Shown here one piece after another: positions 41,835 to 41,852 of a stretch of DNA of 64,000 nt (the first letter of the stretch is position 1; every line of letters begins with the position of its first letter). The DNA comes from Escherichia phage CCU7: the sequence record PV806175.1; one strand, written 5' to 3'. A model generated the notes under the pieces. It was not told the origin of the DNA. It saw only the letters and a program-made list of their open reading frames with translations, and ran no database searches. The position numbers and the translations under genes were made by a program.

Positions 41835-41852
41835 GGGAGACCGAAGTCTCCC
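41835..41852 (-). terminator. terminator after gene 23 (same 18-nt hairpin, minus orientation)
   Basis: gggagaccgaagtctccc with U-tract on minus strand (41821-41834). Confidence 0.65.

Follow-up and report, generated by a model that had tools for sequence, protein, structure and literature searches.

Introduction

In 1988, extra-stable tetraloop hairpins of the C(UUCG)G type were reportedly described by Tuerk et al. from the intercistronic regions of T4. T4 mRNA is also named in a review as the place where C(UUCG)G hairpins were first described (PMC4371310, Hall 2015). For phage RB69, Rho-independent terminators were predicted with TransTerm by Nolan et al. (2006; Virol J 3:30, Additional File 6). 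That article describes three terminator positions as conserved among T4-like genomes, namely downstream of gene 23, downstream of gene 32 and between genes 35 and 36; in the text consulted, the stem shared by seven of the 31 RB69 terminators draws no remark.

Two further systems are relevant for hairpins of this kind. PeSLs are composite cassettes of T4-like phages which consist of a stem-loop and an early promoter; their stem-loop consensus is lineage-specific, they are found preferentially in hyperplastic regions next to ORFans and indels, recombination has been mapped inside the cassettes, and they have been proposed as recombination sites (Arbiol et al. 2010, Comeau et al. 2014). The RNase RegB, which cuts GGAG, needs a single-stranded GGAG followed by an A-rich stretch, with the 11-nt site GGAGAAUAAAA, and all 16 GGAG motifs of T4 that are located in stable structures (terminators included, often with UUCG loops) are resistant to it (PMC1702504).

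Here, we present a computational analysis of a repeated hairpin in a 64,000-nt stretch of the genome of Escherichia phage CCU7 (sequence record PV806175.1), referred to as the window in the following. The window shares 99-99.8% identity with Escherichia phage PECP20 and about 99% with phage NBG1 (genus Mosigvirus); Mosigvirus is the genus of RB69, and the window belongs to an RB69-like T4-type phage. Four copies of an 18-nt hairpin and a fifth hairpin with the same stem are, with high confidence, predicted Rho-independent terminators of this phage.

Results

Occurrence and gene context of the repeat

The 18-mer GGGAGACTTCGGTCTCCC matches the window exactly four times when both strands are searched, at 3186-3203 and 18168-18185 on the plus strand and at 41835-41852 and 61185-61202 on the minus strand, and no further match with up to three mismatches was found in the whole window. 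Dinucleotide-preserving shuffles of the window gave a chance expectation of 0.01 matches, and four or more were reached in none of 100 shuffles. The first-pass annotation had reported four identical 18-nt hairpins in both orientations; the exact-match search confirms them, and their number is far above that of random sequence. Its placement of the third copy after gene 23 and of the fourth after gene 8 agrees with the positions of the two open reading frames (41877-43445 and 61207-62211, both on the minus strand). The copies and their neighbors are as follows.

2277-3179, plus strand: gene 32, ssDNA-binding protein, upstream of copy 1
3186..3213, plus strand: copy 1, predicted hairpin GGGAGAC-UUCG-GUCUCCC (3186-3203) with tail UUUUGAGUAU, 7 nt past the gene 32 stop codon
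3236..3263, plus strand: putative early promoter of T4 type, TTTACT-N16-TAGTAT with extended TG, 33 nt past copy 1 and ahead of the ORF 3293-3685
17983-18162, plus strand: 59-aa ORF with a match to T4/RB69 gene 30.9, upstream of copy 2
18167..18197, plus strand: copy 2, predicted 8-bp hairpin AGGGAGAC-UUCG-GUCUCCCU (18-mer 18168-18185) with tail UUUGUGCGUUU, 5 nt past the stop codon of the 30.9 homologue
18223..18250, plus strand: putative early promoter of T4 type, TTTACT-N16-TACTAT with extended TG, 38 nt past copy 2 and ahead of the ORF 18293-18661
25936..25965, no strand assigned: fifth hairpin of the stem family (hairpin 25936-25958), AAAGGGAGAC-GUU-GUCUCCCUUU, 10 bp, found by a stem scan allowing any loop, between the convergent alt.-3 homologue (plus strand) and gene 54 (minus strand)
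41555-41824, plus strand: early ORF of 89 aa, convergent with gene 23, with its own early promoter at 41496, on the other side of copy 3
41823..41853, minus strand: copy 3, predicted 8-bp hairpin UGGGAGAC-UUCG-GUCUCCCA (18-mer 41835-41852) with tail UUUUUGGUUUU, 24 nt past the gene 23 stop codon
41877-43445, minus strand: gene 23, major capsid protein, upstream of copy 3
61170..61177, minus strand: late promoter box TATAAATA for gene 9, read from the sequence, 7 nt past copy 4
61175..61203, minus strand: copy 4, predicted 8-bp hairpin AGGGAGAC-UUCG-GUCUCCCU (18-mer 61185-61202) with weak tail UUCGUGUAU, 4 nt past the gene 8 stop codon
61207-62211, minus strand: gene 8, baseplate wedge protein, upstream of copy 4

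All four copies of the 18-mer are located 4-24 nt past a stop codon and are co-oriented with the upstream gene (32, 30.9, 23 or 8). In three copies the stem gains one A-U or U-A pair and reaches 8 bp. The early promoters downstream of copies 1 and 2 are followed by a Shine-Dalgarno sequence and a start codon, and copy 4 forms a composite of terminator and late promoter with the gene 9 box. Copies 1 and 4 come after core genes; copy 2 is located in the variable 30.x region, and copy 3 adjoins a variable insertion slot between genes 23 and 24.

Features of intrinsic terminators

The predicted folds reach -13.4 kcal/mol (z -3.0) for copy 1, -14.7 kcal/mol (z -4.4) for copy 2, -14.4 kcal/mol (z -4.2) for copy 3 and -14.1 kcal/mol (z -3.9) for copy 4, and -14.2 kcal/mol (z -3.6) for the fifth hairpin, the z-scores being taken against shuffled sequences of which at most one in 200 folds as stably. 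With stems of 7-8 bp, five G-C pairs and a loop of 4 nt, the copies are within the range of intrinsic terminators (about 5-14 bp, G+C-rich, short loop). The sequences 3' of the stem, UUUUGAGUAU, (U)UUUGUGCGUUU, (A)UUUUUGGUUUU and (U)UUCGUGUAU, are U-rich and all short, with 3-5 consecutive U and, in copy 4, only UUU before a C. On the coding strand all four copies read GAC-UUCG-GUC around the loop, that is, a UUCG tetraloop closed by a C-G pair. A strict terminator scan flagged copy 1, and a looser one flagged all four. A scan of the whole window with Rfam covariance models gave no match at the gathering score.

An unusual stability was considered and rejected: the 18-mer falls within the range of -10.4 to -15.5 kcal/mol spanned by the remaining terminators of the window, and a GGGAGCC variant folds at -14.1 compared with -12.0 kcal/mol. 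Since GGGAGCC would be more stable, thermodynamics leaves the reuse of this exact stem unexplained. The window also contains three further UUCG hairpins that lack a U tract and directly adjoin a Shine-Dalgarno sequence, and therefore the hairpin alone also has other uses.

Further hairpins of the stem family and the record in RB69

The fifth hairpin, which is absent from the first-pass annotation, has the stem GGGAGAC/GTCTCCC of the 18-mer with a GUU loop and is probably a bidirectional terminator. Besides this family, the window contains six C(UUCG)G hairpins built on different stems, namely GGGAC, GGGAGC, AGAGCC, GGGGC, GGGCC and AGGGC. In the complete PECP20 genome, the exact 18-mer is confined to the four orthologous sites; two more hairpins of the form AAAGGAGAC-UUCG-GUCUCCUUU bring the GGAGAC/GUCUCC stems of this genome to seven.

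RB69 (NC_004928) carries the identical 18-mer at the same four orthologous sites together with the same three extra GGAGAC hairpins, so that about a quarter of its predicted terminators (7 of 31) use GGAGAC/GUCUCC. All seven were called by TransTerm with a score of 100 (Nolan et al. 2006):

20965-20980: GGAGAC hairpin
89887-89904, '8-->9': orthologue of copy 4
109234-109251, '23-><-RB69ORF188c': orthologue of copy 3
124931-124947, '54-><-alt.-3', bidirectional: orthologue of the fifth hairpin
132140-132157, '30.8<--30.9': orthologue of copy 2
146032-146049, 'RB69ORF245c<--32': orthologue of copy 1
154321-154336, '35-->36': GGAGAC hairpin

The predicted RB69 late promoter Pl:89887 spans the stretch orthologous to the gene 9 late promoter box, and for two of the sites, after gene 23 and after gene 8, terminators are also annotated in NBG1. 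The identical copies are thus not peculiar to the window but represent a genus-wide 'house' stem. The description of the hairpins as terminators is upheld by their position behind stop codons, their U tracts, their fold energies and the published TransTerm calls at the identical RB69 sites. As predicted terminators they are ordinary: such hairpins have been known from T4-like phages since 1988, and RB69 has published predictions at the same sites.

Orthologous sites in other T4-like phages

Regions downstream of gp23, gp8, gp32 and gp30.9 homologues were taken from IMG/VR. A G+C-rich hairpin directly past the stop codon of genes 23, 8, 32 and 30.9 is present in nearly every T4-like phage (dozens), and its sequence varies widely. 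After genes 8 and 32, compensatory pairs distinguish relatives from the window, for example GGGAGCC/GGCUCCC or GGGACCC/GGGUCCC in place of the GGGAGAC/GUCUCCC of the window. In T4, each of the four orthologous sites has a hairpin of its own, and no GGAGAC hairpin was found in the T4 genome:

T4 gene 32 site: GGGGACC-cuaga
T4 gene 30.9 site: GAGGACUCC-uucg
T4 gene 23 site: AGGGAACC-uucg
T4 gene 8 site: AAGGGAGCC-caug

At the gene 8 site, T4 shows the same layout as the window, a hairpin followed by TATAAATA, with a different hairpin. The window has its gene 23 hairpin and about 10 nt of 3' flank in common with JS98-like, EcS1-like and other T4-like phages with a gp23 that is about 82-85% identical, whereas T4-type relatives with a 95% identical gp23 carry another hairpin followed by a different gene or none. 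As hairpin and flank are shared with distant and not with nearer phages, module exchange is indicated. Six IMG/VR loci (L127, L146, L170, L204, L205, L262) were considered as RB69-like phages with different hairpins and rejected as such; their terminators are of T4 type, and RB69 equals the window at all four sites.

The 18-mer outside T4-like phages

The exact 18-mer was detected in at least 120 viral contig stretches (IMG/VR) and in at least 120 bacterial genome stretches from many phyla (GTDB), in both cases with unrelated flanks; these scans show the wide spread of the 18-mer and not its rank in comparison with other stems. In the UUCG orientation, five or more T are found within the 8 nt 3' of the 18-mer in 88% of the viral and 82% of the bacterial matches listed. 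In metagenome-assembled genomes of Gallionellaceae, several copies of this very 18-mer occur per 8 kb. Judged by its sequence, the 18-mer is a generic terminator which recurs independently and not a phage-specific signal. The 'exact conservation' that had been ascribed to the hairpin is accordingly overstated, given that the same 18-mer arises independently in unrelated phages and bacteria. A mobile element of MITE or REP type was rejected as the source of the copies, with flanks in the window diverging within 3-6 nt of the stem and at least 120 viral and at least 120 bacterial occurrences in unrelated surroundings.

A signal in RNA

Within the palindrome, only the loop is asymmetric. Read in the direction of the upstream gene, it is UUCG in 10 of 10 intergenic C(UUCG)G hairpins of the window (p = 0.001), and the corresponding whole-genome counts are 18 of 19 in RB69, 20 of 20 in PECP20 and 16 of 16 in T4, with p-values from 1e-3 to 1e-6 across genomes. 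That the loop flips with transcription is in keeping with an RNA signal and speaks against a DNA-level element. A repeat acting in DNA as a cruciform, a nuclease or packaging signal or a replication element, with an incidental position behind genes, would fit a perfect inverted repeat that occurs in both chromosome orientations. It is nevertheless extremely improbable, since in all copies, and in almost all C(UUCG)G hairpins of four genomes, the loop is oriented with transcription, the T tract is located on the 3' side of the transcript only, and among relatives the RNA fold is conserved and the DNA sequence is not. The suggested selection on RNA structure is supported by this orientation bias and by the compensatory pair changes at orthologous sites.

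The first-pass annotation had also suggested that the exact sequence might be kept as a specific site for an RNase, of which RegB is an example, or for an RNA-binding protein. In favor of such a site, the stem contains GGAG, RegB is encoded by the phage (PECP20 annotation), and the exact stem is reused even though more stable ones are possible. The GGAG is however base-paired and followed by ACUUCGG, other stems are used freely at orthologous sites of relatives, and unrelated bacteria, which lack these phage proteins, use the same 18-mer as a terminator. In addition, a stem of 7-8 bp is shorter than the usual RNase III substrates. A specific protein site is therefore very unlikely and the suggestion is not supported, as structured UUCG terminators resist RegB (PMC1702504) and no protein is known to bind the CUUCGG loop according to a review (PMC4371310, Hall 2015).

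Discussion

Proposed action of the hairpins

The reading of the hairpins as terminators is based on sequence, position, orientation, fold, conservation at orthologous sites and the RB69 predictions, from which we infer termination and mRNA stabilization. When host RNA polymerase passes the stop codon of gene 32, 30.9, 23 or 8, the nascent RNA would fold into a G+C-rich stem of 7-8 bp, capped by the unusually stable C(UUCG)G tetraloop, and at the U-rich stretch past the hairpin part of the polymerases would release the transcript. The hairpin would then form the 3' end of the mRNA and should shield it from 3'-to-5' exonucleases. It would also part one transcription unit from the next promoter, early for copies 1 and 2 and late for copy 4, or from the convergent early gene in the case of copy 3. 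Because the U tracts are short, with only UUU and then C in copy 4, substantial read-through is likely, and some copies may act mainly as attenuators or 3' stabilizers.

Origin of the identical copies

How strongly the copies exceed chance depends on the null: the excess is overwhelming against random sequence, whereas with the narrow stem vocabulary of T4-like terminators at least four identical arms are reached in about 16% of draws. Two explanations of the identity have to be weighed. According to one, nothing is copied, and a tiny vocabulary (stems with an A/U clamp, a run of G and one or two pairs that vary, capped by C(UUCG)G) together with descent, compensatory mutation and chance yields the same stem repeatedly. 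When arms pooled from other T4-like lineages are drawn for ten hairpins, at least four identical 7-nt arms appear in 16% of draws, and 30% for 6-nt arms. T4 repeats stems too (AGGGGC four times, AAGGGC three times, and two near-identical 22-nt GGACUCC hairpins), and the exact 18-mer has appeared independently with unrelated flanks in hundreds of unrelated phages and bacteria. On the other hand, identity at all four particular sites has a probability of only 0.0015-0.004 under the same pooled vocabulary, the permutation test described below rejects independence between sites, and EcS1 contains 34-nt identical units that are longer than function needs. On balance, the chance that a restricted vocabulary alone is responsible comes close to even.

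According to the other explanation, terminators within one genome exchange sequence, be it by short-patch gene conversion, by recombination between dispersed hairpins or by imported modules as proposed for PeSLs, so that each lineage arrives at a concerted 'house' terminator. Stem usage is indeed clustered by lineage. T4 has different hairpins at all four sites and no GGAGAC genome-wide, RB69 and PECP20 have seven GGAGAC stems each, the CC31 group has GGAGCC at three of the sites, and a further group has GGGACC at three. When 17 lineages and the four sites are taken together, 20 of 68 within-lineage site pairs have identical stems, compared with 7.2 +/- 2.3 by permutation (P < 5e-5), and 14 of 62 compared with 5.8 (P = 0.0009) when Mosigvirus is left out, in a stem table curated by hand and with lineages that are not independent, both of which weaken the test. 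GGGAGAC and GGGAGCC differ at several sites by the same double transversion from A-U to C-G, with no wobble intermediate. EcS1, from a different genus (Kagamiyamavirus), has seven GGAGAC-UUCG hairpins among 20, five of which have TGGGAGACTTCGGTCTCCCATTTT in common, and between its gene 32 and 30.9 copies the identity covers a unit of 34 nt, extending 14 nt beyond the stem; RB69 and EcS1 together use GGAGAC in 13 of 43 cases, T4 in none of 21 (Fisher P = 0.006). The sharing of the gene 23 hairpin and its 3' flank with distant phages, where nearer T4-type relatives differ, points in the same direction, as do the published lineage-specific stem-loop consensus and the recombination inside PeSL stem-loops (Arbiol et al. 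2010, Comeau et al. 2014). Against copying, identity between the copies of the window ends 3-6 nt from the stem, and these bases are the required U tract; the likeness downstream of copies 1 and 2 is the general early-promoter consensus, which six other promoters of the window share without a hairpin; and no recombinant junction was observed. Moreover, four of the seven sites are common to Mosigvirus and EcS1, and part of the pattern could therefore be common ancestry combined with turnover in T4. Copying by itself is plausible but falls short of an even chance.

The two explanations are not mutually exclusive, with the restricted vocabulary ranked ahead of copying. Most likely, the identity results from a narrow set of workable stems together with some copying between terminators within a lineage. 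The spread by recombination suggested earlier is plausible and has partial support from the stem sharing within lineages above the permuted level and from the longer identical units in EcS1; it is not proven and no recombinant junction was seen. We tentatively propose, as a possibility less probable than copying as such, that the terminators of T4-like phages, including those of late structural operons, evolve in concert via short-patch recombination toward a 'house' terminator of the genus, and that the resulting repeats of 18-34 nt serve as points of module exchange, for example at the slot past the gene 23 hairpin. The 'house' stems proposed are GGAGAC for Mosigvirus and Kagamiyamavirus, GGAGCC for the CC31 group, GGGACC for another group and GGGGC for T4.

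These results matter mainly for correct annotation, as the hairpins are terminators of a standard type with an existing record in RB69; what is left as mildly unusual is the reuse of one stem across the genus, along with a statistical hint of terminator homogenization. Exact repeats of 18-25 nt in both orientations, at distances of 15-58 kb, could give rise to deletions, inversions and assembly errors in these genomes. Judging by its independent occurrence across phages and bacteria, the compact hairpin may be a portable terminator for many hosts. If concerted evolution were true, the PeSL idea of cassettes as recombination points would be modestly extended from early hyperplastic regions to conserved late clusters.

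Comparison with known systems

Multi-copy identical terminators are formed in Neisseria and Haemophilus by inverted DNA-uptake sequences, and the phage hairpins resemble them in that a single exact hairpin recurs as a terminator behind many unlinked genes within the same genome. Unlike for these bacterial terminators, we know of no uptake or other DNA-level function, established or suggested, for the phage copies. RegB targets share with the hairpins the GGAG, the intergenic site and a RegB-encoding phage, and differ in that the GGAG is paired here and has no A-rich 3' context. The C(UUCG)G hairpins of T4 have the UUCG loop, the C-G closing pair, the intergenic site and the RNA-level orientation in common with those of the window, but T4 lacks the GGGAGAC stem and repeats GGGGC and AAGGGC instead. 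Compared with the terminators predicted for RB69, sequence and positions are the same and there is no substantive difference (Nolan et al. 2006). With respect to PeSLs, copies 1 and 2 show the layout described for T4 and PST, namely a stem-loop, an AT-rich region, a TTTACW...TAYWAT early promoter, a Shine-Dalgarno sequence and a start codon (PMC4122927). Copies 3 and 4 and the fifth hairpin have no early promoter; a late promoter comes next in one case, and the other two hairpins are flanked by convergent genes, so that the hairpin family as a whole does not consist of PeSLs. Copies 1, 3 and 4 also come after conserved core genes and not after ORFans in hyperplastic regions. By analogy, the hairpin family may nevertheless behave like PeSLs.

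Probable bidirectional terminators between convergent genes

Besides the four exact copies of the 18-mer, the GGGAGAC/GTCTCCC stem family has a fifth member in the window with a different loop, and a second, longer hairpin occupies another junction of convergent reading frames:

25936-25958, between the alt.-3 homologue (+) and gene 54 (-): fifth hairpin of the stem family, with a GUU loop
40138-40171, in the gap separating rnlB (+) from gene 24 (-): hairpin AACGAAAAAGGGACC-ttac-GGTCCCTTTTTCGTT, whose 15-bp stem has no mismatch

The first is flanked by AAA on one side and TTT on the other, its neighbouring genes are convergent, and its RB69 counterpart is listed as bidirectional among the published terminator predictions (Nolan et al. 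2006). The second looks like a strong bidirectional terminator, and its RB69 orthologue (110918-110949) is on the same TransTerm list.

UUCG hairpins of other kinds

Three further C(UUCG)G hairpins in the window lack a U tract and adjoin a Shine-Dalgarno sequence:

19106-19127, + strand
34507-34524, - strand
54788-54803, - strand

These are intercistronic hairpins and not terminators, with a role possibly in mRNA processing, stability or translational coupling.

Outside the window, RB69 (162726-162743, locus L343) and PECP20 (52517-52534, locus L124) both have the hairpin AGGGAGC-TTCG-GCTCCCT in antisense orientation relative to the motA<--52 transcription unit, so that the mRNA would show a CGAA loop. 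It is the sole exception to the rule that the loop reads UUCG in the mRNA sense of the upstream gene, and is nonetheless a terminator according to TransTerm. Another CUUCGG hairpin, TCCCC(C/T)TC-TTCG-GA(G/A)GGGGA, lies inside the gene 40 homologue itself, within its coding sequence, and is conserved in all three genomes compared (T4 22329-22348, RB69 22722-22741, PECP20 79894-79913).

The hairpin in EcS1 and in bacteria

Phage EcS1 (LC371242, loci L489-L492), of the genus Kagamiyamavirus and thus distinct from Mosigvirus, carries seven GGAGAC-UUCG hairpins (97617, 110673, 134454, 152281, 160509, 166070 and 174389). Four of these sites are common to Mosigvirus (g23, g32, 30.9 and g35) and three lie elsewhere (wac, t and beside rIIB); between the copies at g32 and 30.9, the identity extends over 34 bases.

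Among the matches listed, metagenome-assembled genomes of Gallionellaceae, Sideroxydans and Nitrosomonadales contain the exact 18-mer at least twice within a single 8-kb stretch (bacterial loci L372, L389, L428, L431, L435 and L446). It may serve there, too, as a multi-copy "house" terminator.

Genome comparison and the gene 23/24 slot

Aligned in two pieces, positions 1-25000 of the window correspond to PECP20 14006-38759 (25000 versus 24754 bases); the window is thus about 250 bp longer, so the early region must contain one or more indels. On the 121-kb viral contig IMGVR_UViG_2974739009_000001, a gp8 region 100% identical to that of the window occurs twice, 13.5 kb apart (L202, L203); misassembly or a concatemer junction is the probable cause.

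Directly after the gene 23 hairpin, an early transcription unit is set between late genes:

41496-41824, + strand, between genes 23 and 24: predicted early promoter (41496) for an 89-aa ORF that is convergent on gene 23

In T4, this slot is occupied by the homing endonuclease gene segD instead, and other T4-like phages harbor different ORFs or none, and this varying content points to an insertion hot spot.
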